Assembly: GCA_963836075.1 (NCBI GenBank)
Contig: CAWIIB010000002.1
Location: 1 to 22,681, forward strand
DNA: 22,681 nucleotides
DNA from: an uncultured Acidobacteriota bacterium
GTDB lineage: Bacteria; Acidobacteriota; JAQAZP01
Direction of reading: 5' to 3'
The notes under the pieces are model-generated. The model did no database searches. It was not told the origin of the DNA and was given only the letters and a program-made list of their open reading frames with translations. Every line of letters starts with the position of its first letter. The stretch's first letter is position 1. The translations under genes were made by a program, and so were the position numbers. This document shows positions 1 to 22,440 of this stretch, in pieces.

Positions 1-1059
1 AGGACGTCGTCGCCGTTCATGTCGCCCAGTCTCATCTTTCTGGGCGCTTCTCCCGCCGGATGTTCCTCGAACCCCCCGGAAGGTGCCGTCACCGTTTCCC
101 TCTGAGGACCGAAAACCTGTCGTGGTCGAAATTGGACACCACCAGATCCAGCCTGTGGTCGCCGTCCAGGTCGCCGGTGGTGATACCGCTCGGGTCCGCT
201 CCCGCATCGAAGGACACTCGCGGTTGAAATGTCCCTTCACCACTCCCCAGCAATACCGAAACCTGGTCTTCTTCCGGATTGGAGACGATCAGGTCCGGGT
301 GCCCGTCCTCGTTCGGATCTCCAACTCTCAGGGACCTCGGAGAGGGCCCGGCAGGGAGATGCACGGCAGGTGGAAACGTGCCGTAGCCATTGCCGAAGAA
401 GAGAGAAATACTATTTCCGGGGCCATCGGCCAGGGCCGCGTCCAGAACATCGTCACCGTTCAGGTCACCGAGTATCAAGGAACCTGCGTATTCACCGGCC
501 CGGTAGTGCACCGGGGCCTGGAAGCTGCCGTCACCGTTCCCCGTCAGAACCGAGAACAGCTTGCTGTATGTCCCGGCAACACCCAGGGTCGGGAGATTGC
601 CGTCGCCATTCAGGTCTCCGGCAGCGATGGAACTCATGCTGGTACCCACAAACTTGGGGTCCTGTTCTTGAAACCTCCCGTCTCCATTGCCCAGAAACAC
701 TCTTACTTCGAAGCTATTTGAATGAGCCACGGCCAGGTCAGGAATACAGTCATTGTTCAGGTCGGGACCACGGCGATGGACGAGGCCGAGCCGGAACTTG
801 GGTAATTCCAGACGGTGACAAACGTACAGTCACCGAGACCCAGGAGGGTCGAGACAGAGCTGAAATCATCAGTTCGCCACGGCAAATGCAGAATACCGTC
901 GAGGTTCAAATCATGGATGGCGATGTCGTTGGGGACGCCGCTCACATCGTAGTCGACACGCGCCATGAACATCCCGGTTGAGGCCGCCGCGGGGATTGAC
1001 AGCACCATAGAGAAAGCTACGGAAAGCAGGCGCCAGGTGAGCGTTTTTGGATTCTTCAT
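1..1059 (-). CDS. Secreted FG-GAP/VCBS repeat (integrin-alpha-like beta-propeller) protein; frameshifted, 3' end runs off the window
   Basis: ATG at 1059 with a GAGGTG SD, followed by the signal peptide MKNPKTLTWRLLSVAFSMVLSIPAAA. Repeats GDLNGDG...VSVLLGxGDGTF occur in ORFs 757-1089 and 89-730. Frame switches near 763 (DLNNDCIPDLAVAH) and near 95 (GNGDGTF...LGDMNGDDV continues to base 1). Confidence 0.88.
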
Positions 1060-3051: not shown

Positions 3052-4495
3052 TCATTACGAGGAGGCTCCCACTCCATCTCCGGGTCGAAGGGAAACAGCG
3101 GCCGGTCGAGCCGCCGGTAGCGGCAGGCCGGTGATGTTCTGGTTCACCGCGCCGGGGGTCAGGGCCAGCAATGACGCCGCGGCGAGCTGCCGCAGTCGGG
3201 CACCAGGTAGCCGATTTTCACCACGATGATCTTGAACGCTTCGGGCGTCGAGGCCCAGCTCGATGAACTGTCCCGGTGGTGGAACGGTGTCCGCCGTTCG
3301 GTGATGATCACCGTGATACCACGGGTGTCCAGGACCGCCACCTGGTTGGGCAGCTCGTCGCCGGCGCCGGATCGGAGCAGGGTAGAGTGAGACGGATCAC
3401 CTGCCCGGTAACCCGCAGCGGCCGGCCGTTCAGTGGGTCGAGCTTCCCACCAAGCTCCAGCGCCACCCCCGCCCCGCGGCCCGCCCGCCGGCAGGCTGGC
3501 CACGCGCCGGGGTCGGTGATCCCGGCAACCAGTGCGTTCTCGACCCCCAGCTCGAGCATCCGCTCCAGGGCAAACGGCACATCGCCCGCTCCCCCGGCCG
3601 TGGGGTTGTCCCCCGAGTCGCTGATCAGCACCGGATGCCCGGATCGGCCCGGGCCTGATCGAGACACTGGTCCACCGATCCGGCAAAGCACACCGAACCG
3701 GAACTCCCGGCGCAGCTCCCATAAGCGTCGGGCCAGGAACTCGCGCCGCCTCACGACGCGGCTCGGGTCCGGTCCGAGGGTGACCACCGAGGCCGAGGCA
3801 CGGGGCTCGTCGGCCCACACATAACCCATGAGGATCGACGCGTCCAGGAGACCGAATTGATCGATCACCATCGGGATCATCCCGTAGAGGCTCGCCGGCC
3901 GGCTCCCAGCCGGTGCCGGCTCTGCTCGCCGGGCAGCAGAATCGGCACCGTGATGTGGCTCTTGACCGGTCGTCTCAGCGGCTGCGCAGGCAATCCACCA
4001 GCAGCCGGCACGCCCGCTCAACGGTCTCGTACCAGTCCTCGTGGGGCGCGGTGCGGTAGGCGGTGAGCAGGTCGAGATTCGCCATCAACCCTGGCCGAGA
4101 AATTCCCGTGAAGGTCATAGCTGGCGGCGATCAGGCAATCCGGCCCGCCGCCTGGCGGATCGAGGCGATCAAGTGCCCTCGGCATCCTCCATTCCGAAGA
4201 CGGTCGCCGCGCCGTGCATCGGCAGGAGAAGCCCGTCGAAAGGGCCCTGGTCATCGAATCGACCGCAGCAGGTCGTTCTTGAAACTCGTCGTAGAACAGA
4301 CGTCTGATTCGGCCGCCGGGGAGCGCTCTGGCCCGAGACAGAGGGATAAACTCGGATCCGGGATAGTCGGCCCAGGAAACCGTACTGCCGAAGTAGGTGC
4401 CGGCCTCGGAGAGATGTGAAAATCCTCCTCCGCTGGTGGCCAGGGGAGAAAAGGTGGAGCACTCGCAGCTCAGACCGGCGATCACCGATGCGCAT
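3052..4495 (-). CDS. M81 family (MlrC-like) metallopeptidase/amidohydrolase, multiple frameshifts; 3' end approximate (about 3052 or 2995)
   Basis: Motifs IAGLSCECSTFSP, ARALPGG, MHGA, ASYDLHGNFS, DASILMGYVWADEPR, ISDSGDNPTAGGAGD, IIVVKIGYL, LALTPGAVNQ and RPLFPFDP. The start ATG overlaps the cutC stop (TGATG at 4493-4497). Confidence 0.88.
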
Positions 4496-5250
4496 CAGGC
4501 CTCCTTCTGGCGGCGGCTGCGCAGATGGCCCGGATCCGCTCCCGGTCGGTCACCAGCCGCTAGATATTCCGAGAGTCGGCGGTCCGATCCCATGAAGGCC
4601 TCGTCGTTCCGGAACTCCATCGGGCTGGATACCTGCCGCTCGGCCAGCACGTGGAATTCCGCGGCACGGGTCTGGCTGATCAGGCCGGCGATGTTCGTCT
4701 CATCGATCCCCACGCCGGGCATGATGATGATCTGGTCGCCGGCCCGCCGCACCAGCTCGGCGATCAGATCGGCGCCAGCCACGGCCGACGACTGCTGCCC
4801 GGAGGTCAGCACGCGGTCCACACCGAGGGCCACCAGGTCCTCAAGGGCGGCAAAGGGATCGGCGGTCATGTCGAAGGCGCGGTGAAAGGTCACGCTCATC
4901 GGCCGGGCCAGCTCGACCAGCTCCCGGCACTGCTCGCAGTTGACAGTCGCCGTACGTATCAAGGATGCCGAAGACCACCCCGTCGGCGCCCGCCTCCCCG
5001 GCGGCCAGCAGGTCGGTCTTCATGATCTCCAGTTCCTGGAGGAGTAGCAGAAATCTCCGCCCCGAGGCCGGATCATCACGTTGAGCCCGATGTCGAGATG
5101 CTTCCGGGCTGCCCGGATGGCCCCGAGGCTGGGCGTGGTGCCCGCCTTCGTGGAGGTTGTCGCAGAGCTCCACCCGGCCGGCGCCGCCGTGGCGGCCTCG
5201 ACGGCCGACTCCACCGAGTTGACACAGGCTTCGAGGAGGATGTCGTCCAT
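4495..5250 (-). CDS. cutC: CutC family TIM-barrel protein, frameshifted
   Basis: Motifs LLEACVNSVESA, ELCDNLHEGG, TTPSLG, VMIRPRGGDFCY, GADGVVFGIL, TFHRAFD, RVLTSGQ and IIIMPG. Confidence 0.93.
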
Positions 5251-5349
5251 ATCTATTTATATCCCACCTTAAAATGGCTCACAAACCCCGGCTCCGGATT
5301 GCCCCGGCACATGCTCTTTTCCGCAGGGGGAACACCGCCACTCCTGCCT

Positions 5350-6391: not shown

Positions 6392-7247
6392 CTACCAGTG
6401 CCCTCCAGCCTTGCCCTTACGGTTGAGATAGGTCTGTTCCAGTTCCTTGCTCAGAAATTCGAATGTCTCCTCGGGATCGTCTCACGCTTGAACAGGTCGC
6501 GGTCCTCGGGGCTGATGGTGCCCAACTCGACCATGGCGTCGAGGTTGATCACCTCGTCCCAGTAGTCGCGTGCCGTAGAGCACGATCGGCAGCTGCTTCT
6601 TCGATCTTTCGGTCTGGACCAGGGTCAGAATCTCGAACAACTCGTCCAGGGTGCCGAAGCCGCCGGGGAAGACCACCAGCGCCTTGGCCAGGTAGACGAA
6701 CCAGAACTTGCGCATGAAGAAGTAGTGGAACTCGAAGTTGAGCTTGTGCGATGATGTAGCGGATTGGCGTTCTGCTCGAACGGGAGGCTGATGTTCAGGC
6801 CGACGGTCTCGCCGTCGGCCTCGCTGGCGCCGCGGTTGGCGGCTTCCATGATGCCCGGGCCGCCGCCCGAACAGACGGTGAAGCGTCGCGCTCCGTCCCT
6901 CCAGGCCCTTGGACCAGGTGGTCAGCGGTGGGCCAGCCGGCGGGCGTCTTCGTAGTATCGGTCGAGCAGGCGGCTCCCGCCTGTCGCGTCACCACGCTCT
7001 CGGCCTCCTCCGCGGCGCTAGGCCCGCGCCGAGCCGAAGAAGACGATGGTGTCCTTGATCCGGTGGCGGCGGAAGCGCGGCACCGGCTCCAGGTACTCGG
7101 CGAGGATGCGGATCACCCGGGCGTCGGGGCTATTCAGGAACTCGGGTTCTTGTAGGCCTTGACCGGACGGTGATGATCGCGGGTCACGCCTTGGCTGTCG
7201 TCATCGGGCGTCCGGACCTCATTGCGCTTTTTTGACACGGTATCCAT
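6392..7247 (-). CDS. LOG family (TIGR00730-like) nucleotide phosphoribohydrolase, frameshifted
   Basis: [50 protein letters not shown] and [38 protein letters not shown] at 7247 with a GAGG SD; TAG at 6392-6394. Confidence 0.92.
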
Positions 7248-7347: not shown

Positions 7348-9615
7348 TCAAGCCATGGGGGCGGGATCGCCGTCTTCGAACCGCTCTTCCTGCGGAGCGA
7401 GAATTCTTTCCGCTCCCCGTACCGGCCCTGGTAGCGGTAGTAAGGATAGTAATAGTAGTAGCCGTGGCGGGTCATGTCCAGGTTGTTGGTCACCACGCCG
7501 AGGACCCGAACCCCGGCAGCGTCGAGACGCTCCTTCACTGCCTGCAGGGCGTCCCGTTCGGTCACGCCCGCCGTGGATCACCAGCACCAGCCCATCCGAC
7601 TTCACCCCGAGAATAACCGGATCGGTCACGGAGAGAATCGGCGGCGAGTCGAAAATGATGTGGTCCACGGCATGCTCGCGATACATCCGCTCGACAAACT
7701 CGTCGAAGCGGACCGAACTGATCAACTCGCTGGGATCGGGAGGCACCGGCCCGGAGGTGATAAAGGAGAGCGCGGGCACCTTGCCCTGGGGCTGCACCAG
7801 CAGATCCTCGAAATTGATGATCCCGGCCAGGTAGTGGCTCATCCCGCCCTTCTTGCCGTCGGCCAGGAATACCTTGTGGATTTTAGGCCGGCGCAGATCC
7901 GTGTCCACCAGCAGGACCCGCCGGCCCAACTGGGCCAGGGTGATGGCCAGGTTGACCGAAGTGGCCGTCTTGCCTTCTCCGGGGGAAGCGCTGCTCACCA
8001 CGATGGTCCGCGGCGGCTCACCGGCCCCACTGAGCAGCAACGATGTGCGAACCGAGCGGTAGGCTTCGGCAACCAGCGATTTGCTGTCCTCGTAACAGAC
8101 GGCATAGATCGGGTCCACCGCACCTGCCGGTGCTTCCGGTTTGCTATCGGACTTTTTCGCCGCTTGCCCCCGTTGGTTTTATCCCCGTTGGTGGACAGAG
8201 TGGGAATCGCCCCCAGGGTCGGCAGGCCGAAGAGCTTGGTCACTTCTTCGCCGGACTTAACCGTCCGGTCGAGAAACTCGAGGAGGAAGGCCACTCCCAC
8301 GCCCAGGATCAAGCTCAGGGCAAAGCCGAGAGCCACATTGCGCCGTTTCTTCGGCTTGAATATCAAACCTCGGCAATTCGGCCGGATCGACGATCCTGAT
8401 GTTGCTGCTCCCGATCCCCTGCAGCTGTGCGGTGACGTTCGCCTCGGACTGCCGCTGAAGAAGCGACTGGAGCAACTGGGACTTGCTTTTGACTTCCATG
8501 GACAGGGAGTCGTACTGGATGGCGCTGAGGTTGCGGTCCAGGGCCCGGCTCTTCTGTTCGTCGAACATATCCTTGAGCGAGTTCTCGTTTTCGCGGGCCC
8601 GATCGAACTCGGTCCGCGCCGCCTTGAGCGCCTCGCGATAGATCTCGTTGCTCTTGTTGTTCAGCCGCTGACGGGTCTTTTCGATTTCAGATCGGAGACG
8701 CACCTGCTCGGGCATGGCGTCCTTGAACTTCTTGGTGTTCCGGGCATACTCGCCTTCCAGCTCGGTGATCTCCTGTCTTCAACTGGGTCACCTGCTGGTT
8801 GTTCTGGACCTCGGGGATCGATCCCGGAGAGGCATCCTTCATCCTCTCATACGTGGTTTCCAGACGTATTCGGTCGGTCTGGGCCCGGGTAAAGGACTGG
8901 TTCAGCTCCACCAGCCGCTGACTGGTGATGTCCTGGCCCTCCGAGGTTCCGATGATGTCGGACAGCTTGCCGTATTCCTGGAGCTGCTTCTGCTTGTCCT
9001 CCAGTTCCTGCTGCAGCCCCTCGACCTGGGTGGAGAGGAAATTGCGGGCTTGCTCGGTGGCCGAATACCGCGACTCGAGGCTGAACGAAATATAGGCCTG
9101 GGCCACGGAATTGGCCAACCGGGCAGCCATTTCCTTGTCCGGGGAGAGCATCGAGACTTCGACGATGTTGCTGTCCTTCACCGGGTTGATCTCGATGGTT
9201 TTCATCAGGCTTTCGGCTATCCGGTCGCGGAGAGTCTCCGCATCCAGCGCTCCGCCATCCTCCTCGCCATCTTCTCGGAATAAACAGCGGCGAAGTCGGT
9301 GAGATCCAGCAGATCCACCACGCGCTTGGCCACGGTCTTGCTCGTGATCAGTTGGTACTGGGTGTTGAAAAAGGTGTAGTAGTCGTAGCGCTGGACGAAC
9401 ACCTCGTTGCCCATGGCCATGTTGCTCACCGTCGATTCCCGCTCGATGAGCACCGAGGTGGTGGCCTGGTACTGGGGTGTCTGGACAAAGGTGTGGATGA
9501 TGGTGAGGAGAAGGCCGAGCACGGTCAGCAGGATGACCAGCCGTTTTCGCTTGATCAGGATATAGTAGTAATTCCGGAGGTTGAATTCCTGTCCGGTGGT
9601 TTCCTCTTCGGCCAT
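7348..9615 (-). CDS. wzc: Polysaccharide co-polymerase / BY tyrosine autokinase (Wzc/GumC-type), frameshifted
   Basis: N-terminal TM followed by TPQYQATTSVLI, periplasmic coiled coils, NIRIVDPAELP and a second TM. Then AEAYRSVRT, Walker A SASPGEGKT, A' DTDLRRP, B IFDSPP and the Tyr cluster GYYYYYPYYRY. One extra G in the GGGG near 7416 gives stop 7348; the literal frame stops at 7254. Confidence 0.93.
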
Positions 9616-9637: not shown

Positions 9638-10957
9638 CTAGAAGATCGTTTCCGGTACCACGACCACGTCCTTGTCCTGGAGCAGGATATCTTCCTGCTT
9701 GCCCTTGAGGATCTTCTTCAGGTTGACGTCGATCTGTTCTTCCGTGCCGCCGGGCGATTTCCGTTTGACCCGAACCTTGTCCGCCGCGGCACGGTCAGTC
9801 AGGCCGCCCGCCTTGGTGATCGCTTGCAGCAGGGAGATGACGTCAGATTTTTTGAAGGACAGTTCACCCGGCTGCCTCACGGCGCCGTAGATGTACACCG
9901 ACATCTCGCGGATCAGCCGGAATGTTGATCACGTCACCGGACTGCACCTGGATGTTCAGCTCCGACCGCCCCTGGATCATCAACTCATCAATATTGACCG
10001 TGATCCGCCGCGACTCGCCGTCGGCCCCGATTCGAATGACATAGAGCTCCGGTCCCGCATTGTCCGTCAGGCCGCCCGCCTCGGAGATCATGTGGATCAG
10101 CGTCCTGCTGCCCAGCAGCTTGTAGGTCCCCGGTTTCTGGACCGAACCGATCACCGAAACGCTCCGGCTCCGGAACTCACGGATGAAGACCGAGACCTGG
10201 GGACTGTTGATATACTTTTCTTCGAGGAGGTTGCGAACCACTTCCTCGAGCCCCCGGCGGGTATGTCCTTCGGCCCGCACCTCACCGAGAAGCGGCAGGG
10301 TGATCATCCCCTCTTCCGAAACTCGCACCGTCTTGTTCAGCCCTTCGAGCTCGAACACCGAGACTTCCAGCAGATCCTCGGGACCGATGATGTAGTCACT
10401 GCGTTGGGTGGATAGGGAGGCCTGGCCGATCACCGGTTTTACCGACAGGTTGGCGCTGGTCCATTCCGGTCCGGTTGGCGCGGCTGCGGTTTCCACCGGC
10501 TCGGCATCCAGGGGCTCCACCGGGGCATCGGCCGGTGGATCGGAAAGAGCGCTGGTGGCCCCCCCGGATACAGACGGTCCACCACAACTTCGGCATCATC
10601 GTAACCCGCTTCGATAAACTGCGCCTGGAGAGCCTCGGCCTCTCCCGTGGTACGGAACTCACCGATCTCCACCCTGTACACGCCACTCTTGGCGCTGAAT
10701 TCGATGACCGCCTTCTGGCCCTTGAAGCGATCGTCCTTCTCGATCTTTTTTTTCGCCTTCTTGGCCCGGCGCGAGGAAAAATACGCGGCGACCTGGACGC
10801 GATACGTACCCTCTTCATCAGCGGACAACTGCCCCTCATCCGGCCCCCGGGAAACGTCGTTGTCGGCCCGAACCACACCGGCCAGCGGGATGGCTGCTGC
10901 CAGCGACAAAACGATCAGGATTGCCAGGAAATATCTGTTGTTGCTACTGTTCACCAT
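9638..10957 (-). CDS. OPX/Wza-like polysaccharide export protein with an N-terminal SPOR domain (signal peptide, SPOR, linker, Poly_export, two SLBB); frameshifts near 10560 and 9905
   Basis: ATG 10957 with a GGAGG SD. SPOR-like YRVQVAAY...VYRVEIGEFRTTGEAEAL. Poly_export DYIIGPEDLLEVSVF...GMITLPLLGEVRAEG. SLBB motifs VSVIGSVQKPG...AGGLT and VYIYGAVRQPG...AGGLT. Ends DKDVVVVPETIF. Confidence 0.85.
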
Positions 10958-11144
10958 CGCCTCCGTCCCACTCTCCAATAAACCGGTCACCCGTCCGGCA
11001 TCGAAACCTGCCCCGGTCAAGGACCGCGGTTTCGCGCCGGTCGAGGTGGCCGGCTCCAGATTTCAAGAACTCAGGTTGATTTCCTGACTCAATACGTACT
11101 CGCTCCACGACGAATTTCAACCCGCAACCACGCCGCTCGATGGC

Positions 11145-13393: not shown

Positions 13394-13425
13394 TCTGGCA
13401 GAATGGATAATAAGGAAATTAATGT

Positions 13426-13959
13426 ATGAATGTCATCGATCTGCTCATTCTTGTGGTCAGCCTCGTCGGAGTCACCCTTGGCGCGATCAAGGGGATCTCC
13501 CGAATCCTGCTTGCCGCACTGGGGCTGGTCTGCGGGATTGTTCTTGCCGCCCGACTGCACCAGCCGGCGGGAAACCTGCTGGAGCGGCTGGTCGACGGTG
13601 CTTCCCTGCGTAAATCCATCGGGTTTGTAATGGTCTTCCTCCTGACCTGGATCATCTTCCTGCTGCTCGGCTACCTGGTCTCCTGGCTACTGAGAAAGAC
13701 AGGCCTGCGGTGGCTCGACCGAACAGTGGGCGCCGGCGTCGGCTTCGGGGCCGCGGTGATCTTTCTCTTCTTCATTCTGATCCTGCTCACCGCCCTGCTG
13801 CCGGTGAACAGCCCGCTGCTCACCGAGTCGCGCCTGAGCCCCTTCTTGCTGGGGACGGTGAACCGGGCATCGCTGCTGGTTCCCCACCAGACCCAGGATC
13901 GTTTCTCGGACAAGCTGGAAGCGGTACGGCGTTTTTGGGAGCAAACATCTGCCGAATAA
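13426..13959 (+). CDS. cvpA: CvpA family membrane protein
   Basis: MNVIDLLILVV...GAIKG, several TM segments, GLRWLDRTVGAGVG and ESRLSP. AAGGA SD. Confidence 0.92.
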   Translation: MNVIDLLILVVSLVGVTLGAIKGISRILLAALGLVCGIVLAARLHQPAGNLLERLVDGASLRKSIGFVMVFLLTWIIFLLLGYLVSWLLRKTGLRWLDRTVGAGVGFGAAVIFLFFILILLTALLPVNSPLLTESRLSPFLLGTVNRASLLVPHQTQDRFSDKLEAVRRFWEQTSAE

Positions 13960-13966
13960 GGGAATA

Positions 13967-13992
13967 GCGAACTTTTTGGGCCGGCTGCCGTA
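13967..13992 (+). promoter_or_regulatory. Putative ECF-sigma (autoregulatory) promoter
   Basis: GCGAAC (13967-13972), 16 nt, CGTA (13989-13992), matching the AAC-N16-CGT architecture of SigW-like ECF promoters, about 90 nt before the ECF gene. Confidence 0.55.
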
Positions 13993-14081
13993 TTTCACAG
14001 GTGACGGGAGGCAAGGCAACCTCACCCGGCAGGAAACCGAACCAGGGCCGAGATCGACAACTTCACAAGGAGCTCGGTAGG

Positions 14082-14763
14082 ATGCCCCAGCCGGCGGAAA
14101 GAGACCGAAGCGACCGGAACTCCTCCGGAAATCACCGACGGCCAACTCGTCCAGAATTGTCTTGACGGTGAATCCCCGGCCTGGGAAGAACTGGTGACCA
14201 GATACAGCAGACGTGTCTACAACGTGGCCTACCAGTTCACCGGACGCCACGAGGAAGCCGAGGATCTGACCCAGGATATTTTTCTCAAGATCTACCGCTC
14301 CCTCGGCACCTTCGACCTCGATGCCGCCTTCCTCCCCTGGCTGATCAGGGTATCGAAAAACATGTGCGTGGATCACTATCGCAAGCGCCGTCGGGAACGG
14401 CTGCTGGTTCACGGGAACTGGGAAAAAATCACCAATGTGGCCTGCACCCGTTCCAATCCATATCAGAAGACATTCAACCGGGAACGGCGGGCGATTTTGC
14501 TCCGCGCCCTGGAGCAGATCCCGCCCGACCTGAAGGCAGTGGTCATCCTGCGGGACCTGCAGGGACTGACATACCAGGAAATTTCCGAGGCGATGGATCT
14601 TCCCGAAGGAACGGTGAAATCCCGCCTCAACCGCGGCCGCCTGGAACTGGCCCGATTCATCCGCGGCGAGGACCGCTCCCTGGAGAAGGTCGCCTCGGTG
14701 AGCGGCGGCTGGTTCCGCAAGGCCGTCCGGAAACGTGCCGCCGCCGCGGCCAGTCCAGGCTGA
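14082..14763 (+). CDS. ECF RNA polymerase sigma factor (SigW/RpoE-like); probable start ATG 14082 with one indel near 14095
   Basis: EITDGQLVQNCLDGESPAWEELV is in frame upstream of GTG 14194. Region 2: AEDLTQDIFLKIY...WLIRVSKNMCVDHYRK. Region 4: LRDLQGLTYQEISEAMDLPEGTVKSRLNRGR. Confidence 0.93.
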
Positions 14764-14791
14764 AAGGCGTTCTGAAAGGAGGCGCCGGGGC

Positions 14792-15397
14792 ATGAGCCAT
14801 GAATTGCAGGAAACGCAGCAAAACTGTTCAGCGAGCAGATCGAGGGCCGCCTCGACTCGGAGCGGTCGGAGCAGACTGCTGGCCCACCTCGACCGCTGCG
14901 CCGACTGTGCCGAGTTGATCGAGATCATGGAGCTGAACATCGTTCAGCTGGAAAACGTGCCGGAGCCGCCATGCCGGCCGGTCTCGAACAGCGTCTGGCC
15001 TCGATCCCGCAGCGTGAACTGGCCGCGGCCAGCGCCAGGGGCAGCAAAGCGGCAGCGGGGCTGGGGGCCGGCGGCGCACTGGCTCTTCTCCAATGCGGCG
15101 GCAGCCGTGATCCTGGCGGTGTTCATCACCGCCAACCTCACCTGGTTCAATCCCGATTTCCAGGATTCGATCCACGGCTGCCGGAGGCTGATCAACGACA
15201 AGAGCGCGCAGGGCGCTGGAATGGCTTCGGACTGGGGAGCCGGACTGAACGATTTGAAACAGAAGGTGGAATCCCGGATGGACATGGTTCGGGATGCCGA
15301 CGGCCGGACCGCTAAGGATACCGACGAAACGGAGGCTGACACCTCCGGATTCCTGGTCACCGAAATCATCAGGGCGCTGGGTCTGATCGGAGCCTGA
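14792..15397 (+). CDS. Zinc-finger (zf-HC2/ZAS) transmembrane anti-sigma factor, with local compensating indels
   Basis: HLDRCADC (HxxxCxxC). An alternative frame gives MNC...LFSEQIEGRLD. TM segment AAAAVILAVFITANL. Directly downstream of the ECF gene. Confidence 0.85.
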   Translation: MSHELQETQQNCSASRSRAASTRSGRSRLLAHLDRCADCAELIEIMELNIVQLENVPEPPCRPVSNSVWPRSRSVNWPRPAPGAAKRQRGWGPAAHWLFSNAAAAVILAVFITANLTWFNPDFQDSIHGCRRLINDKSAQGAGMASDWGAGLNDLKQKVESRMDMVRDADGRTAKDTDETEADTSGFLVTEIIRALGLIGA

Positions 15398-15428
15398 AAC
15401 AGCCCGGGCGCCCGGGGGCGAGGGAAAC

Positions 15429-16174
15429 ATGCGCTGCCACTACCATGCAGAAGAAGAAGCCATCGGCGCCTGCGCCATGTGCGGACACCCGCTCTGCGAG
15501 ACCTGCACCCGGGAGCGAGACCGGGTCTTCTATTGCGAAAGCTGTCTGGCGGAGAAGGAAGGCAGCGGGGGAGAACCGGCCCCGGCAAGCGATATTCCGA
15601 AAATCAAGCTTCCGGCCGGCGAATATTATCAGCCCCCGCGTGCTGATGCCGGAAAAGACCCGGCCTCGAAAAGCAAGCGGCCCGGAACGGCCGCCCTGCT
15701 CTCGATATTCATCCCCTTCACCGGCCAGATCTACAACAACCAGTTCGCCAAGGCCCTTACATTTCTGCTGCTCTTCATCAGCTCCATTATCCTGACCCAG
15801 AAATCGCATCCGATGGAGGGCCTGTTCGGAGTCATCGCGGCCTTCATTTACTTTTACCAGATCTACGACGCATACAAGACCGCTCGGGGAACAAAGAATC
15901 CGAACACTCCACGGCGCTGGTCCCCATGCTCACCGGTGAAAGCCAGGCCGAATTCACTGGCCAGGGCGCCGAACCAGCTTCCGGCCCGGTGGCGGCACCG
16001 GCAGTCGAATCACCGATCTGGGGCATCAGCCTGATACTGCTCGGGGTCATCTTCCTGCTGGACAATTTCAACCTGATTCACTACTCCACCCTGATCAATC
16101 GTCTCTGGCCGCTGTTCATTATCGGCACCGGGATGGCGATGATCCTGATCTACGCTCGCCGCAGAACCAGCTGA
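15429..16174 (+). CDS. Membrane protein with an N-terminal B-box-type zinc finger, a central TM2-like region and a C-terminal LiaF/DUF5668-like TM module; frameshift near 15900-15925
   Basis: MRCHYH...CAMCGHPLCETC...YCESC, then PGTAALLSIFIPFTGQIYN, YQIYDAYKTAR and WGISLILLGVIFLLDNF...LWPLFIIGTG. Confidence 0.82.
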
Positions 16175-16236
16175 AACAACCGGCATCGGAAGTCGGAACC
16201 CGGCGGCCGTACAGGAAACACCGCCGCCGGTACATG

Positions 16237-16274
16237 ACGAAGCCCCGCGGCCGCCAGGGCCCGCGGGGCTTCGT
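16237..16274. terminator. Probable bidirectional terminator hairpin between convergent genes
   Basis: Perfect 14-bp stem acgaagccccgcgg (16237-16250) / ccgcggggcttcgt (16261-16274) with a 10-nt loop. U-tracts are weak. A second 8-bp stem lies at 16200-16230. Confidence 0.7.
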
Positions 16275-16297
16275 TGCTCACAATCACGAATCGGCGG

Positions 16298-16708
16298 CTA
16301 CGGCGCTACCACTTCCAGGCTGTCGGACCCCGTGTCCACGGGCACGCCATCCATTTCAATCCATCCGGTAAAACTGTAAATTCCCGGCTGAGCATAGGAC
16401 GACACCGGAATCTCCCAGTTCTTGCGACGGGAGGTGGCCGGGGTCACATTGTTGATCGTGATCGGGCCACGGGGGATGGTGTACCCCCAGGGAGTATCGA
16501 TGGTCATGTAGCCGATACCGGAGAGGAAGATACCTGAACCGTATGGAGCAGGGTTGAAGATTACCGTGTTGACGATCGCCTTCTCACCGATCAGGACCGT
16601 ATCCTGGGGCAGATTGAAGACCACCAGTTGAAGTTCATATTCCTGGGCCATGGCACTCGCGCCCGCCATCAGAAATCCCAGGACCAGCAGAACAGCCAGT
16701 TTTTTCAT
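16298..16708 (-). CDS. Secreted 136-aa hypothetical protein, probably a single Ig-like beta-sandwich
   Basis: ATG 16708 with a GGGGAGG SD, signal peptide MKKLAVLLVLGFLMAGASAMA, and IPVSSYAQPGIYSFTGWI...DSLEVV. Confidence 0.8.
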   Translation of the reverse strand: MKKLAVLLVLGFLMAGASAMAQEYELQLVVFNLPQDTVLIGEKAIVNTVIFNPAPYGSGIFLSGIGYMTIDTPWGYTIPRGPITINNVTPATSRRKNWEIPVSSYAQPGIYSFTGWIEMDGVPVDTGSDSLEVVAP

Positions 16709-16726
16709 CAGACCTCCCCTTGCTTG

Positions 16727-16860
16727 TGGTGAATCGAAACCAAAGAAATGGCCAACGGAATACCTCCTCCGCAAACACATCCCAACCCTGAGTATTTTCA
16801 CCTGTGGAAACGATACTGAAATCCGAGAGTTTTGCGGCGGTGAGAGGAACAACTCCACCA
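16727..16860 (-). ncRNA. Candidate structured 5' leader RNA (family not recognised)
   Basis: Nested complementary segments, several needing G-U pairs on the minus strand, between the promoter and the SD; see findings. Confidence 0.4.
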
Positions 16861-16883
16861 AACCGTGCACAACTTGTTATTAG

Positions 16884-16912
16884 AATTTAAGCGATACAAG
16901 ACTATTTGTCAA
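16884..16912 (-). promoter_or_regulatory. Sigma70-type promoter
   Basis: Minus-strand TTGACA (16912-16907), 17 nt, TAAATT (16889-16884). Confidence 0.65.
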
Positions 16913-16987
16913 TATCCTATCGGGAAAAATCAACATGACTGCCCGGAACGGCCGACCGGCAGACCTCATCGTCATGGCCGAGCCATG

Positions 16988-16996
16988 TGGTATAAT
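16988..16996 (+). promoter_or_regulatory. Extended -10 promoter for the GWxTD-VWA gene
   Basis: TG-G-TATAAT, a perfect consensus, about 85 nt upstream of ATG 17082. Confidence 0.6.
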
Positions 16997-17081
16997 TCGA
17001 CGTGATACCCGCAGCAGGATACCAATTAGTTAGCAACCTCACCTCGTCGGGCCCTGCCCCGGGGGCATCCAGGCAACGTGA

Positions 17082-20000
17082 ATGAAATCCCACGGCCCGC
17101 GCTCAATACACCCGAAAACGATCCTTATCCTGGCCACAGCCATCCTCTTAACCTCGCCAACCGGCGGTGTGTTTCCGGCAGCGCCCGAGATACAGTTCGA
17201 GGATTCCGCCGAGGAGTTCACGCTGATCACGGGGAACTGGCTCCAGGAAGTAGCCGCGGACCTGCCGCTTGCCGAGGAATGGCAACTCTACCAGTCCATG
17301 CGCCGCCCGGATGACCGCGGTTATTTTCAGGGGGTATTCTGGGCCCGTCGAGATCCCACCCCTGATACGGTGCACAACGAATTCAAGTATGCCTACCTCG
17401 CACGAAAGCACCGTGCCCGGGAATTGTTCAGCTGCCGATTGGCCGGAGTGGCATCAAGCGACGAGGGTGTGTCGGTGCCCGGTGACCTGACCGACATGGG
17501 CCGGGTCTACACACTGCTGGGCCAGCCGGACGGGGGCCTGCCGCTCACTTTTGCACCGGGGGGTGGCGCTGAGGCCCTGGCCGCGGCACGCTACTCACCT
17601 GCCTTTGAATGGATATACCGTAAAAACAGCACTCTTCTCCCACTTTCCGAACCGCTGACCCTCAGTTTCCAGGACCTGAACAGTGATGGTCTTCCCGAAC
17701 TGGTGGACGAGGCCCGGTTTTTCGGGGAAATTGTGCCGGAACTCAGACAAAAGACCATCCTCTGGCCGGAAATCTTTTACCAGCCAGGGGGCCGGCCGCT
17801 TGACGGCCGGCCGATGGACCTGGTTGACGAAATCGAGCTCGTGGCCTCGGTGAGGGAATATTTCCGCATGGGACTGGGGCCGGCCGACATGGACGTCCAG
17901 GTTCAACCGCAAGTCTCCTTTTTCCGCGGCGAGGAGGGAAAGACCAGTGTCTGGCTCACCTGCAATCTGTTCGTGGTCAGGGGCCAGGGGCACGCCGCCT
18001 ACCGGGTCAAACAGAACCAGGGTGCCGAAAACCTCCGACTTCGCGGTCTGGTTGTGGGGCCGGACGGGGACGTGACCGACCGCTTCCACATCCGTGCCAT
18101 GCGCTCCGGACAGGATGAAGCGGTGATATTGAGCGAGACGGTGAGCCCCGAGGACGAACCGTGGACCCTGCGCAGGGTTTTCGACCTGGCTCCCGGCGAC
18201 TACCAGGTCTATCTCATTGCCATGGACCGGGCCACATCAAAACAGGGGTGGCACCGGCTCAATTTCCGGGTACCCGACCTGGGCCTCGATCAGCTCGCCG
18301 CCAGCAGCCTGTTGCTGGGAAACGGCCTCGAACCCTACCCGCTGATCCGGCGCCCCATGCCGCCCCCCTTCTGCCACCGCGGGCGTCAACTGACACCGTT
18401 GCCGGCGGAGGGTACCATCCCCCTGCCCCTCTCGGCCGGTCCGACCATGCTCTACCACGTCTACCTGCCCACGTCCGGGGAGGAAGAGGGAACTCAGGGT
18501 CTCCGCGCAGACCCGCGCCAGGTGGAGGCTTCATTCCGTGAGCTGACCGAGCGGCCGTTTCTCACCACCTACCGTTTCAAACGGGCCGGTGAAACTGTCC
18601 TCACACTTCCGGGAAACGCCCTGAACGAACTGGCCCAGCCGGTGGATTCCGCTGAACGGGAATGGAAAGTCTCGATCACCGTGCCGCCCGATCGCCTCAC
18701 GCCGGGTGAATACCAGGTGGAGGTGGAGGTGATTCTCCCCGGCGCCGGCCAAACCTGTCTTCTGGGCACGGGGCTGGCCATAACCGAAGTGGGCTCCGCG
18801 GTGCTTGACCAGGGCAGCGGCGAATCCGCCCCCCTGCGGCTGTTGACCCGGCTCGAGAAACGGGGACTGCCGGAGGCCGGCGACGAGCAGACCGGAGCCC
18901 GAAAAGTGGTGATCACCACCCCCACCGCCCAGGAGAACATCTTCGCCGTCGAACGCCTGGAGGCTGTTCCGACCCTCGGCCCCAACGGCGAAGAAGCGGA
19001 GTGGATCGATTTCTACGTCGATGGCGAACACCTCCTCCGGGACCTCGCCCCGCCCTACCGTTGCCTCTGGCGCGCGTACCCGGCGGCCACCGACTACCAG
19101 GTCACGGTACGGGCCCACTATCCCGGCGCGAAATGGGCCACTGACCATGTGCTGCTGGCCCGGCCGAACAACTACCTCTCGCTGGAAGTGGAGCTCCAGC
19201 AGATGTATGTCACCGTTGCCGACCCCGCAACCGGCGATTACGTTTCCGGTCTCACCCGGGATAGCTTCCTGCTGCTGGAGGACGGCACGGAACAGGAAAT
19301 CAGTCACTTCGAACAAAAACAGCGGCAAAACCTGGTGGCCGCCTTTCTCTTCGACATGGGCATCGACCCGCCCCAGGCCCTGCAAAAGCTCAAGGAGGGG
19401 GCCGTGAAATACATCACGGAAAACATGCCCCAGGGCGACCGGGCTTTTATCGCCGCCTACCAGGTACGAACCCTGGTCCAGCAGGAACTCACCGGCCAGC
19501 GGGGCCTGCTGGTCAGCGCGATCAAATCGCTGCCGGCTCCCGACGCCGCCAGCAGCCGGCGGGCAGACCGGATGATGGAAGCAATTTCCGCCTGTGCCGC
19601 CGAGCTGGAGCAACTGGAGGGAGATCGAAAGGTCCTGATCCTGCTCTCCGACGGCAAGGACGTAACAGCGGCAATCAGCAACCGCGGACTGGCCGACCAG
19701 CTCCAGCGCAGCGGTATCACCCTTTACGCCATCGGGATCAACACCACTCCCCCGCTCACCAACAACCAGTTCTACAACCTGACCCGCGACCCCTCCACAT
19801 TCGAAAAGGCGATGCGGCTGATCGGTCTCGGCGGCTTCTACCGCAGCAAGGACCTGAAACGGGCCGAAGCGCGAAACCAGTTCATGGAACGAAGGTTCAG
19901 CGAATCGCTGCTCGACACACTGACGCTGGCCTCGGGCGGCCGCTACTATCCCTTCGACGTGAGCTTCCGCGCCGATCACATTCGTGATGCACTGATCAGT

Positions 20001-20246
20001 CTGGAGGAAGAGCAGCGCAATCAGTACTACCTGGGATACATCTCCAGCAATCCGGAAAAGGACGGGTTGTGGCGCGGGATCAAGGTGGATACCGGAGGTG
20101 AACGGGATCTGCTGGTGCGCAGCCGGCTGGGGTATTTCGCCCGCGGACGAAGCCTCACGGCGATCCAGGATTTGCAGGATCTGTTCGCCGGAACAGAGGG
20201 TGGGAGCGAACCGGCCACGGAAAAAGAGGCCGGCCCGCCCCCGTGA
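17082..20246 (+). CDS. Exported GWxTD-domain, Ig-like and VWA (Acidobacterial VWFA-type) multidomain protein, 1054 aa
   Basis: Signal peptide; FWARRDPTPDTVHNEFK...TDMGRVYTLLGQPD; LAPGDYQV...SSLLL; IDFYVDG...PPYRCLW; YVTVAD...VSGLTRDSFLLLEDGTEQEISHF; RKVLILLSDGKD; SGGRYY; RNQYYLGYISSNPEKDGLWRGIKV...RSRLGYFA. Confidence 0.88.
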   Translation: MKSHGPRSIHPKTILILATAILLTSPTGGVFPAAPEIQFEDSAEEFTLITGNWLQEVAADLPLAEEWQLYQSMRRPDDRGYFQGVFWARRDPTPDTVHNEFKYAYLARKHRARELFSCRLAGVASSDEGVSVPGDLTDMGRVYTLLGQPDGGLPLTFAPGGGAEALAAARYSPAFEWIYRKNSTLLPLSEPLTLSFQDLNSDGLPELVDEARFFGEIVPELRQKTILWPEIFYQPGGRPLDGRPMDLVDEIELVASVREYFRMGLGPADMDVQVQPQVSFFRGEEGKTSVWLTCNLFVVRGQGHAAYRVKQNQGAENLRLRGLVVGPDGDVTDRFHIRAMRSGQDEAVILSETVSPEDEPWTLRRVFDLAPGDYQVYLIAMDRATSKQGWHRLNFRVPDLGLDQLAASSLLLGNGLEPYPLIRRPMPPPFCHRGRQLTPLPAEGTIPLPLSAGPTMLYHVYLPTSGEEEGTQGLRADPRQVEASFRELTERPFLTTYRFKRAGETVLTLPGNALNELAQPVDSAEREWKVSITVPPDRLTPGEYQVEVEVILPGAGQTCLLGTGLAITEVGSAVLDQGSGESAPLRLLTRLEKRGLPEAGDEQTGARKVVITTPTAQENIFAVERLEAVPTLGPNGEEAEWIDFYVDGEHLLRDLAPPYRCLWRAYPAATDYQVTVRAHYPGAKWATDHVLLARPNNYLSLEVELQQMYVTVADPATGDYVSGLTRDSFLLLEDGTEQEISHFEQKQRQNLVAAFLFDMGIDPPQALQKLKEGAVKYITENMPQGDRAFIAAYQVRTLVQQELTGQRGLLVSAIKSLPAPDAASSRRADRMMEAISACAAELEQLEGDRKVLILLSDGKDVTAAISNRGLADQLQRSGITLYAIGINTTPPLTNNQFYNLTRDPSTFEKAMRLIGLGGFYRSKDLKRAEARNQFMERRFSESLLDTLTLASGGRYYPFDVSFRADHIRDALISLEEEQRNQYYLGYISSNPEKDGLWRGIKVDTGGERDLLVRSRLGYFARGRSLTAIQDLQDLFAGTEGGSEPATEKEAGPPP

Positions 20247-20308: not shown

Positions 20309-22440
20309 CTACTGGGCGGTTCCGCCGGCCACGTTGGCGCCGTAGAATACGGACGTCTCGTCAAAGGCGTAGAAATCGGTGCCGGTCACCAGTTCCAGCA
20401 CGGCCCCGTCATAATTCCAACCCCGAATCAGGGTGGGTTGACCAGGACCGGGTCCCGCACCGGTGAGAATCTCGTCGTAGCCATCGTTGTCGAAATCCAC
20501 GCAATTCACGTTGACCCCGTAAGTGTAACCGGTATCGTAAGCAAAGAAGCTGACGCCGGAAATCGGCGTCAATGACCCGTTGTCAAAGTTGAAGGCCCGG
20601 ACGTGGGATGATGTCGCTTCGCCAGGTCCCGCACCGGTGACGATCTCGTCATAGCCGTCGCCGTCGATGTCACCGGCGGCGACGTGGACACCCCAGCGGT
20701 TGGTGGCGTAAGACAGGAAACTGACCTGGCTTATGGCCTGGATGGCGGCGCCGTCGAAGTTCCAGCCCCGGACGTGGGGACCGTAAACCGCGCCGGGACC
20801 GGCACCGGTGAGAATTTCGTCGATCCCGTCACCGTCGATGTCGCCGCAACTCACGTTGACGCCCCATTTCGGTGTGCCGTAGGCAAAGTAGCTGATGGCG
20901 CCGATTTCGGTCAGGGGACCGCCGTCAAAGTTCCAGCCCCGGACGTGCGGGCCGAAAACCGCGCCGGGACCGGCACCGGTGATGATCTCGTCAAAGCCGT
21001 CACCGTCCACGTCACCACAGCTCACGTTCACACCGAATTTATTCGTGCCGTAGGCCAGGTAGCTGAGGTTACCCATGGCCGTGCCGTCCCAATGGAAGGC
21101 ACGGACGTGAGGTCCGTACACCGCACCCGGTCCGGGGCCGGTGATGATCTCGTCGATGCCGTCGCCGGTGATGTCGCCGCAGACCACGTTCACGCCGTAG
21201 CCGCCCGCACCATAGGCGATGAAATCAGTGATGCCGTTTTCGATGCCGTTGACGTAGAAACCCTTGACCCGGGATTCGTTGGCCGGTCCGGGGCCCGGAC
21301 CGGCGACGAGGAAGATGGTGCCGCTGCCGCCGCCACTCTCGAACCACAGGACCTCATCACCCTCGAAGTCACAGATAACCAGGTCCACATCCATGTCGCC
21401 GTCAAGATCGCCGGCGGCCGTGCCGAAGGGGCGCACCGCGGATTCGGTGACCACCCGGCGGGTGAAGGTTTCGGCACCGTTGTTGTCGTACCAGTACATC
21501 TGCGAACCGTTGAAGGCGGTGGCGGTGATGTCCTTGTCGCCGTCGTTATCCAGGTCAGCCACCGTGGCGTGAATGGCGCCGGCCAGGTTGTTGTCAATGT
21601 TTTTCTGGGTGAAGGATTCCGAACCGTTGTTCTCCCACCAGGTGAGCCGGTTGTCGTCCATGGCGGTGGTGACGAAGTCCATGTCGCCGTCATCATCCAG
21701 ATCCACGCCCTGAATTGAAGTGGTTCCCTCGTGGTTGCCGGAGATCTGGTTTGCGGTGAAGCTTTCGCTGCCGTTGTTCGCCCACCAGACCACGTTGCCG
21801 TCGTGGAAGGAGAGGCCGGCCACATCATTGTCACCATCGTCGTCCACGTCACCAGCCCAGACCCACTGGGCCCCGTCGAGACCGGCGGTGAAGGTGTTGT
21901 GCATGGTGAAGCTCTCGCTGCCATCGTTTTCGAACCAGGAAATCTTGTCCTGGTAAAAAGAGCTGGCGAGAATGTCCATGTCGTCGTCGTCGTCCAGATC
22001 GATGACGAAACAGCAGCTGGCGTCAACAAAGCCGGTGGCGATGTTCGCCCGCGAGAATGACTCGCTGCCGTTATTTTCCCACCAGGCCAGCACGTCATGG
22101 AAGAAGGAGACGGCAATGACATCCAGGTCGCCGTCGCTGTCCAGGTCAGCCACCACCAGATGGTTCACGCCATAGAAGTTGTCCTCCACCACCACCCGCT
22201 GCGAGAATGAGCCGAGCCCGTTGTTCTCATACCAGAAAATGTCTCCATCCTCATAGGCACAAGCCACCACGTCGTTGTCCCCGTCACCGTCAAGGTCCAC
22301 CACCTGCGCGTGGCGTGGACCATCGAACTGATCGCCCACCGTGTGCTCGGAGTAGTTGAACCGTCAGCTGCCACCGGCAGGGAGATGATCATCGCGGCCA
22401 GCAAAATTGCCAGACCGCCCAGATTTGCCATTCGCCTCAT
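20309..22440 (-). CDS. Secreted FG-GAP repeat protein with two distinct propeller-like modules; frameshift near 22360
   Basis: ATG 22440 with an AAGGAGG SD and signal peptide MRRMANLGGLAILLAAMIISLPVAA. Seven DLDxDGDxD...W(W/Y/F)ENxGxxxF repeats, a GGGSG linker, then GVNVSCGDIDGDGxDEIxTGAGPGAVYGPHVRGWN repeats. Confidence 0.9.
20420..21310 (-). repeat. Intragenic tandem repeats, period about 160-171 nt
   Basis: Near-identical blocks such as ggacgtgg/cgg...gcgccgggaccggcaccggtga at 20770 and 20941 (171 nt apart), with more degenerate copies on both sides. Confidence 0.8.

Follow-up and report, generated by a model that had tools for sequence, protein, structure and literature searches.

Can a polysaccharide exporter carry a cell wall anchor of its own? 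The question is raised by a gene on the minus strand of a 22,681-nucleotide contig (CAWIIB010000002.1, here C2) from an uncultured Acidobacteriota bacterium, which was analysed over its whole length and is called the window below. The window is one contig of a 10-contig, 6.2-Mb genome (GCA_963836075.1) with a contamination estimate of 4.6%. The gene, at 9638..10957, encodes a SPOR domain followed by an OPX polysaccharide export protein, and as deposited it is spread over three reading frames. SPOR-OPX is genuine: a variant, not remarked on before, of an export machine that is already known, and its copy in the window is damaged. The best explanation as a whole, to which we give a probability of about 60%, is that a single SPOR-OPX gene belongs to a barrel/OPX/Wzc core, that its product forms a ring tethered to the wall with a possible septal bias, and that the frame breaks are errors.

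How trans-envelope polysaccharide exporters are positioned, held and threaded through the peptidoglycan is poorly understood. In Class-3 OPX systems the lipid anchor is, to our knowledge, the one tether that has been studied. A SPOR domain on a flexible leash, together with an AMIN domain in a sister lineage, leads to a concrete hypothesis: wall tethering, possibly with septal or polar placement.

Layout of the SPOR-OPX gene

9638..10957, minus strand: the whole SPOR-OPX gene, from ATG at 10957 to TAG at 9638-9640, read in three frames with two 1-base shifts
10439-11020, minus strand: open reading frame (ORF) A, with the SPOR domain, 35.1 bits against a cut-off of 21, E 1.7e-8
9864-10520, minus strand: ORF B, Poly_export at 77.3 bits and one SLBB domain
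9638-9904, minus strand: ORF C, the second SLBB domain, SLBB_2 E 9.6e-13
10865..10957, minus strand: N-terminal export signal of about 31 residues, MVNSSNNRYFLAILIVLSLAAAIPLAGVVRA followed by D, a hydrophobic stretch without Cys or lipobox
10595..10813, minus strand: SPOR domain, PF05036, 35.1-36.9 bits
10410..10594, minus strand: Pro/Ala-rich linker from SPOR to the OPX core, disordered in the paralogue model
10182..10409, minus strand: Poly_export (PES, D1), PF02563, E 1.1e-21, 77.3 bits
9921..10163, minus strand: first SLBB domain, SLBB_2 E 4.4e-8, SLBB E 2e-7
9656..9898, minus strand: second SLBB domain, SLBB_2 E 9.6e-13, ending ...VVVPETIF without a C-terminal helix
10557..10570, minus strand: frame break 1 in tat-cc-G7-cc, where the window is one base short or two bases long compared with homologues
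9905..9910, minus strand: frame break 2, one extra base in GATCCGCGAGATG, from alignment with the paralogue on contig C9
11145..12482, minus strand: outer-membrane beta-barrel gene, BBP2_2 / EpsL-like, upstream, PF10082 E 3.1e-9
7348..9615, minus strand: Wzc-like gene (Wzz/chain-length part and tyrosine autokinase), downstream, in at least 4 frame pieces, starting 22 nucleotides past the OPX stop

The original prediction had described ORF A as a signal-like N-terminus without a Cys followed by a SPOR-like domain, and that is what the ORF contains, with PF05036 above its cut-off. A profile check had been suggested for both parts of the joined gene; PF05036, PF02563 and SLBB all score in the window pieces. 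The true start is likely the ATG at 10957, which matches the 'MVNS...' of the intact homologue P0006, and type-I cleavage of the signal, judged by eye, would fall after VRA. Joined together, the pieces should give an exported protein of about 437 amino acids with the order SPOR, linker, Poly_export, SLBB, SLBB.

One protein in the intact relatives

Contig C9 of the same genome holds an uninterrupted paralogue, a 435-amino-acid ORF with a signal peptide, a SPOR domain (33.6 bits), a linker, Poly_export (80.5 bits) and two SLBB domains. A search of a 5.8-billion protein-cluster set returned 1395 proteins at E <= 0.001 among 8000 candidates, and the best 120 were scanned for domains. Ten of these 120 (P0001-P0010) combine PF05036, PF02563 and SLBB in 416-456 amino acids, with 63-100% identity to the C9 copy; SPOR is absent from the other 110, most of which have about 280 amino acids. 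Among metagenome contigs of the Joint Genome Institute (JGI), 52 loci were found: five match query residues 1 (or 5) to 433 in a single frame, and 47 match from residue 169 onward only. The genus-mate G002 matches residues 1-433 in one 440-amino-acid frame. The OPX piece of the window has no signal peptide, and its frame begins inside the linker.

The claim that SPOR and OPX form a single protein is borne out by the C9 paralogue, the ten clusters, the five metagenome loci and G002, each of which has both parts in one frame. The alternative is two genes, one for a short exported SPOR protein and one for an OPX protein with its own start; the window as deposited does show separate ORFs, and a gene caller produced a 171-amino-acid SPOR-only product from it (P0121). 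Such an OPX protein would have to begin inside the linker and do without a signal peptide, when all its full-length relatives are continuous. Moreover, the tail of the SPOR ORF past the G7 run (PPALFPIHRPMPRW...) aligns to no homologue, and the other frame does. Judged by these comparisons the two-gene reading is already refuted, and the chance that it is right seems negligible. In the relatives the SPOR and OPX parts belong, by their sequences, to one protein.

The two frame breaks

The alignment to P0006 runs up to residue 129 (...VVVDRL) in frame A and resumes at residue 131 (GGAT...) in frame B. The homologues read DRLYGGAS, DRLYGGTS or DRRYGGSS where the window has DRLYPGG in the first frame and GGATS in the second. 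Because the homologue junction maps there, break 1 is placed inside tat-ccggggggg-cc, at 10557-10570, and the G7 run of the minus strand is located exactly at 10559-10565. Frame B is open back to 10595 and reads ...SGGATSALSDPPADAPVEPLDAEP... before Poly_export and one SLBB domain. The change from A to B amounts to one base added or two removed: an eighth G gives YPGGATS, and dropping two C's gives YGGATS, which is the closer of the two to the homologues.

The change from B to C amounts to one base removed. At break 2 the window has GATCCGCGAGATG where the C9 paralogue has GATCCGC-AGATG, so that the window carries an extra base at about 9907 and the second SLBB domain lies in the third piece. 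A contig from the public run X2, which differs at 12 of 137 bases, has GATCCGGAGATG here, which is D-P-E-M as in P0004; this comparison rests on record 5 of run X2, loose end included. The proposal had been that one added G would join SPOR to Poly_export and two SLBB domains. Its first junction holds, and the part about two SLBB domains does not, with a second break at about 9905-9910.

The SPOR-OPX gene is one of at least seven window genes that are frame-broken, all within 1.1-10.6 kb. Besides it and the Wzc-like gene the broken genes are these, the first four of them seen from Pfam families split between overlapping frames in a scan of 117 ORFs:

1138-2349 and 2375-2905: SSF symporter, 2 pieces
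3162-4549: M81/MlrC peptidase, 4 pieces
4498-5019 and 4844-5278: CutC, 2 pieces
6485-6988 and 6628-6921: LOG/lysine-decarboxylase-like gene, 2 pieces
about 5836: frame change in a glycosyltransferase-region gene

Over C9:3085345-3122160 the window aligns collinearly at 77-88% nucleotide identity, about 10 kb of C9 (3101480-3112143) having no counterpart in it, and the alignment has 74 gaps in well-aligned context whose length is not a multiple of three. Its GC content is 61.7%, against 63.6-66.9% in the other nine contigs. The Wzc-like gene of C9 is also broken, near its N-terminal Wzz part (L002 2243-2608 and 2538-3584), so the main contig is not free of indel errors either. In another assembly, the 189-amino-acid P0122 is near-identical to the window N-terminus and leaves and re-enters the frame from an A8 run, so that this gene shows homopolymer-type errors in an independent case too.

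Because at least seven genes of the contig are frame-broken, sequence error is the likeliest cause. On these comparisons, both breaks in the SPOR-OPX gene are most likely faults of the consensus, on a contig with poor coverage, and not biology. We infer that C2 is a thinly covered contig of a long-read assembly; judged by its sequence, its probable origin is a second, co-binned population of the same genus and not the main chromosome. With a contig so rich in errors, split genes are not to be read as biology.

If the frameshifts were real instead, the window copy would be a true pseudogene, either a decaying redundant second locus or the dying locus of a co-binned strain, and the fusion would be functional only in the C9 copy and the relatives. 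The two breaks run in opposite directions and the second is outside a homopolymer; the contig as a whole repeats a stretch of C9 at about 77% identity, less 10 kb, and many neighbouring genes are broken too, all of which would suit decay. In the public reads, four runs were found and two share parts of the stretch (0.11 and 0.06 of its words): X1 and X2 together give zero cover over 10376-10985, which spans break 1. Run X1 also has one 195-base contig identical to 10081-10275, too little for naming a habitat. Decay does not sit well, however, with breaks in unrelated housekeeping-type genes such as those for the SSF symporter, the M81 peptidase, CutC and the LOG-like protein, or with the same kind of break on C9 and the frame-hopping at the A8 run in P0122. 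The OPX pieces also contain no internal stop codons and are 80-91% identical to intact P0006; piece by piece, the window is 79.8%, 89.0% and 90.9% identical to P0006 and 58.8%, 75.9% and 87.5% identical to the C9 copy. A real pseudogene is an unlikely reading.

The N-terminal domain folds as a SPOR domain

The N-terminal domain of the window gene scores 35.1 bits against PF05036 in one scan and 36.9 bits (C2:10595-10813) in a second, where the cut-off is 21; the same domain in P0008 scores 39.5 bits. The window SPOR region matches the CwlC SPOR domain (1x60) by sequence in the PDB at E 1.4e-6, and a PDB profile search matches 1x60 at E 1.4e-8.

A structure model was built on the C9 paralogue (first row) from 98 homologues, with a mean predicted local distance difference test score (pLDDT) of 83.6; the modelled protein is 59% identical to the window copy over the SPOR part. 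The predicted regions are these:

Residues 7-24: helix
Residues 51-129: SPOR, beta-alpha-beta-beta-alpha-beta, pLDDT 88-95
Residues 131-180: disordered stretch, pLDDT below 50
Residues 181-433: OPX body, pLDDT 83-98

The SPOR elements in this model (m1ff74438a5c0) are strand 51-60, helix 63-75, strands 84-89 and 94-102, helix 105-117 and strand 124-129. An earlier model from 11 sequences, with a mean pLDDT of 49.6 and a Z of only 5.2 against FtsN, was discarded and superseded by the 98-sequence model.

Folds were compared with VIA-align against 48,161 chains, with Foldseek as a second method. VIA-align places the domain closest to the RlpA SPOR domain with denuded glycan (6i0n, Z 10.3, root-mean-square deviation (rmsd) 2.3 over 75 residues) and to the CwlC SPOR domain (1x60, Z 9.7, rmsd 1.8), and more weakly to DamX (2lfv) and DedD (6ztg), at Z 6.6 each. 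Foldseek gives a template modelling (TM) score of 0.80 for CwlC. The N-terminal domain is a SPOR domain: it passes the Pfam cut-off and folds like RlpA and CwlC, so that the doubt raised at the outset, that it might neither score nor fold as SPOR, falls away.

RlpA (6i0n), FtsN (1uta), DamX (2lfv), DedD (6ztg) and CwlC (1x60) have this fold in common with SPOR-OPX, which also passes the Pfam threshold, and the ligand of these division and wall proteins, peptide-free glycan strands, is probably also the ligand of SPOR-OPX. All characterised SPOR domains are reported to bind denuded peptidoglycan glycan (10.1101/2022.07.01.498525), and the ligand is given as a peptide-free glycan of the GlcNAc-MurNAc type (PMC6895207). 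The placement is different. In proteins of division and wall turnover the SPOR domain stands at the C-terminus and recruits division or wall-enzyme modules to the septum; in SPOR-OPX, by contrast, it is N-terminal on a subunit of a secretion channel.

A Class-3 OPX and barrel machine

Behind the linker come Poly_export (77-80 bits, cut-off 28) and then two SLBB domains, which makes this an OPX protein. VIA-align superposes the model on Wza (9r60, Z 18.4, rmsd 3.9 over 254 residues, model 171-433 on chain 73-349), on Class-3 WzaB (9n9a, Z 15.8) and on truncated Wza (7xfd, Z 15.2). Foldseek finds Wza at E 1.7e-20 and WzaB at E 1.7e-15, and the PDB profile search finds 9n9a at E 8.6e-28 and Wza at about 7e-17. 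The model ends in a strand (residues 424-428 of 433) and has no C-terminal helix, all 11 of 11 clade sequences end in ...VVVPETIF, and neither the Wza_C nor the GfcC module has a Pfam match at E <= 0.01 in the window or the C9 copy.

A Wzz-plus-kinase gene lies directly downstream and a BBP2_2 barrel gene directly upstream. The barrel gene encodes 445 amino acids (TIGR03014 E 4.5e-9, far below that model's cut-off), and a BBP2_2 gene stands directly upstream of the OPX gene in five of five loci, namely the window, C9 and three other families of the phylum. On C9 the Wzc-like gene is a 716-amino-acid frame with one break. OPX-barrel pairs exist among solved or modelled structures. The description of this protein as a helix-less OPX/Wza next to a barrel proves accurate: it has no C-terminal helix, its alignment stops at Wza residue 349, and BBP2_2 is upstream. 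That half is the published Class-3, or composite OPX-beta-barrel, translocon and hence not new. From its genes, the window system appears to be a Class-3 OPX and barrel translocon with an added SPOR domain, a predicted peptidoglycan-binding module.

The Class-3 systems for comparison are WzaB-WzpB, EpsY-EpsX (WzaX-WzpX) and ExoA-ExoB of M. xanthus and VpsN-VpsM of V. cholerae (PMC9603273, PMC9601211, PMC12819527; PDB 9n9a). Like them, SPOR-OPX has a Poly_export D1 and SLBB domains, no Wza_C helix, and adjacent genes for a barrel and a polysaccharide co-polymerase (PCP/Wzc); its C-terminus likewise ends in an aromatic residue. Unlike the Class-3 proteins studied, it has an N-terminal SPOR domain on a disordered linker of about 50 amino acids, and unlike the lipidated WzaB its clade has no conserved lipobox Cys. 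The studied partner barrel is an 18-stranded porin of the WzpX/EpsX type; the barrel here is known by its Pfam family, BBP2_2. OPX-barrel coupling is reported to extend to D1D2D2 proteins of more than 250 amino acids (PMC9601211, section 11), and many Class-3 hits carry extra uncharacterised residues (PMC9603273). WzaB is described as monomeric without acylation, N-terminal lipidation being required for its membrane association and oligomerisation, with a C-terminal di-Phe motif that binds the porin and an opposite end that binds Wzc (PMC12819527).

Two further systems are related in part. The D1-D2-D3 body of E. coli Wza (Class-1; PDB 2j58, 9r60) superposes on SPOR-OPX, which unlike Wza lacks the D4 amphipathic helix and the lipoprotein signal, has the SPOR extension and needs a separate barrel. 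The EpsE/EpsL/EpsF/EpsG genes of XrtB/PEP-CTERM loci (TIGR03028, TIGR03014, TIGR03017, TIGR03029) are the top NCBIfam models for the OPX, barrel, chain-length and kinase genes here and have the same gene order; in contrast to those genes, all window scores are far under the cut-offs and no exosortase was found. A PEP-CTERM/exosortase reading was rejected on these scores (EpsE TIGR03028 154.5 against 262.65, TIGR03027 139.1 against 180). The genome, which is 94.7% complete, has 0 matches to the exosortase family PF09721.

An added domain, and an AMIN domain in its place

N-terminal lipidation, a feature of WzaB and nearly all myxobacterial members, is absent here. The signal region of the window protein contains no Cys, the Cys column is not conserved across the clade (P0001 and P0008 have a Cys), and a loose lipobox pattern occurs in one of ten clade members and in 10 of 120 homologues. 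The idea that SPOR replaced a lost lipid anchor was dropped, as most SPOR-less relatives also have no lipobox. Since the wider OPX subfamily is mostly non-lipidated, SPOR is an addition and not a replacement.

Three relatives (P0027, P0056 and P0109; 47-50% identity, 438-489 amino acids) have an AMIN-type N-terminal domain instead of SPOR and end in ...ETFF. The domain in P0027 scores 24.1 bits against PF11741, with a cut-off of 20.5, and P0056 aligns with P0027 through it. AMIN domains are known for septal-wall binding. That two unrelated wall-binding folds occupy the same position in one OPX subfamily points to wall binding as the selected function, and by this comparison it is probably the best indirect argument for it. 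The PilQ secretin of type IVa pili (PMC10653833) offers a parallel, in that it too has an N-terminal wall-binding module on a subunit of an outer-membrane secretion channel; unlike SPOR-OPX, it has another fold (AMIN), belongs to the secretins and not to the OPX family, and handles other cargo. It has reportedly been proposed that the AMIN domains of PilQ, by way of septal peptidoglycan, direct the machine to new poles.

Spread of the fusion

A search of other genomes had been proposed for the architecture; run by sequence likeness, it found the fusion in one genus only, a small group of uncultured sediment Acidobacteriota. In a comparison of 41 genomes (the own genome, the genus and the phylum), 27 had a match at E <= 1e-20. 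Only C9 of the own genome and G002 are full-length in one frame; in the genus-mate G001 the gene is cut by two contig ends, and in the other 24, among them G025, flagged as unpublished, the match starts only at residue 135 or later. A scan of GTDB species representatives gave two loci, both in the same genus-level group. With the window SPOR region as query, matches at E <= 1e-6 came from 10 genomes in an even sample of 401 from the phylum: three were genus members (E <= 1.8e-38), and seven matched more weakly (E 1e-10 to 5e-7) in frames of 790-1051 amino acids, one of which was examined and proved to be SPOR plus SpoIID.

Protein sets gave the same picture. The SPOR region of the paralogue returned only four clade members from the 5.8-billion-protein set, and the window SPOR region returned 29 hits from 1.84 billion representatives. 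Those 29 comprise the window's fragment P0121, P0003 (which represents the clade), P0122 and P0123 (fragments from other assemblies that hop between frames) and 25 other proteins, with a SPOR score in 24 of these. Among the 27 that were scanned (29 less P0121 and P0003), none has Poly_export. The ESM Atlas returned only SPOR-less OPX clusters, with a best score of 0.81. All of these searches follow sequence likeness to this clade, so distant independent SPOR-OPX fusions would be missed.

The nearest SPOR domains outside the OPX clade sit on SpoIID-type cell-wall enzymes. The genome has only three SPOR hits, of which two are these OPX genes and the third lies in an 811-amino-acid frame at G000:C1:136486-136713. 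A matching large SPOR protein in another family of the phylum (L076) is SPOR plus SpoIID, a cell-wall hydrolase family. By its sequence likeness, the large SPOR and SpoIID lineage may be the source of the OPX SPOR domain. As a separate observation, the 913-amino-acid P0143 has a SPOR domain together with a membrane domain of type IX secretion (PorP/SprF), and is another outer-membrane secretion component with this domain.

That no characterised SPOR-OPX fusion is known also stands: the literature searched, which left out InterPro architecture tables and subscription journals, describes none. Nor does it describe an AMIN-OPX fusion. In the OPX-class papers every 'spor' among the matches listed is 'spore'; peptidoglycan is matched 0, 2 and 0 times in them, and the match listed is a figure legend on periplasm thickness. 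The supplementary files of PMC9603273 contain no whole-word SPOR, PF05036, AMIN, PF11741 or LysM.

What the SPOR domain may do

We propose that SPOR-OPX is the OPX subunit of a three-gene core that also contains a beta-barrel porin and a Wzc-like co-polymerase/kinase. Like other Class-3 OPX proteins, it would form a periplasmic ring, here non-lipidated, with the C-terminal ...PETIF end docked under the neighbouring barrel and the D1 end docked onto the Wzc-like protein. In rings of the Wza type, no part lies further from the outer membrane than D1, and Wzc docks there. The N-terminal leash should leave the ring at this end, near the layer of the cell wall. In an octamer, eight SPOR domains on linkers of about 50 residues (45-75 amino acids across the clade) would then surround the place where the machine crosses the sacculus, and by binding peptide-free ('denuded') peptidoglycan strands they would immobilise the ring there.

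Denuded glycan strands are made by division amidases, and the genome contains three Amidase_3 genes, which could supply the ligand. Because denuded glycan is the product of these enzymes, the tether might bias assembly to the septum and the new poles. Wall tethering is the best-supported candidate function of the SPOR domain; septal targeting is plausible and is carried over from the SPOR domains of other proteins.

A different ligand would change this picture. The SPOR domain could bind the exported polysaccharide or another amino-sugar glycan and serve, where the polymer enters the OPX ring, to capture, gate or retain the substrate. It is tethered to D1, the entry point of the polymer, the known ligand is itself a glycan, and SPOR sequences and affinities vary widely. 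Yet characterised SPOR domains bind the wall, their nearest relatives here are on SpoIID-type wall enzymes, and an unrelated AMIN domain, with its role at the septal wall, fits a wall ligand better at this position. We hold a polysaccharide-binding role to be quite improbable.

On a broader scale, non-lipidated Class-3 OPX proteins in the Acidobacteriota and their neighbours might repeatedly have gained N-terminal readers of division peptidoglycan (SPOR, AMIN), so that the export machine would be septal and inherited at the new poles. This is a tentative idea with the odds somewhat against it. If it is true, glycan secretion would have a built-in spatial address, analogous to that of PilQ AMIN for type IV pili.

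Several points weigh against the explanation as a whole. SPOR domains share less than 20% identity and differ in affinity (10.1101/2022.07.01.498525), so the fold alone is no proof of binding to denuded glycan. The OPX subfamily evidently works without any tether, and in the sets searched the fusion is confined to uncultured Acidobacteriota of a single genus-level group. As to the breaks being assembly errors, break 2 lies outside any homopolymer and the two public runs do not cover break 1. As to C2 and C9 being one organism, C2 may come from another one, given its GC content and its being closer to P0006 and P0004 than to the C9 copy, and G002 holds the SPOR-OPX gene once.

Other features of the contig

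The other half of the contig, 13423-20246, is mostly intact. Its genes are listed here together with the FG-GAP/VCBS-repeat genes of the contig:

13423-13956: CvpA-like
14005-14760: extracytoplasmic function (ECF) sigma factor
15647-16171: LiaF-like membrane protein
17082-20246: 1054-amino-acid ORF with only a weak VWA hit
20312-22363 and 92-829, minus strand: FG-GAP/VCBS-repeat proteins

For the repeat region at 20.3-21.3 kb, blastn gives well over a hundred matches, at 65-76% identity, on contigs C1, C5, C8 and C9, and these matches indicate that the FG-GAP/VCBS repeats form a very large paralogous family.

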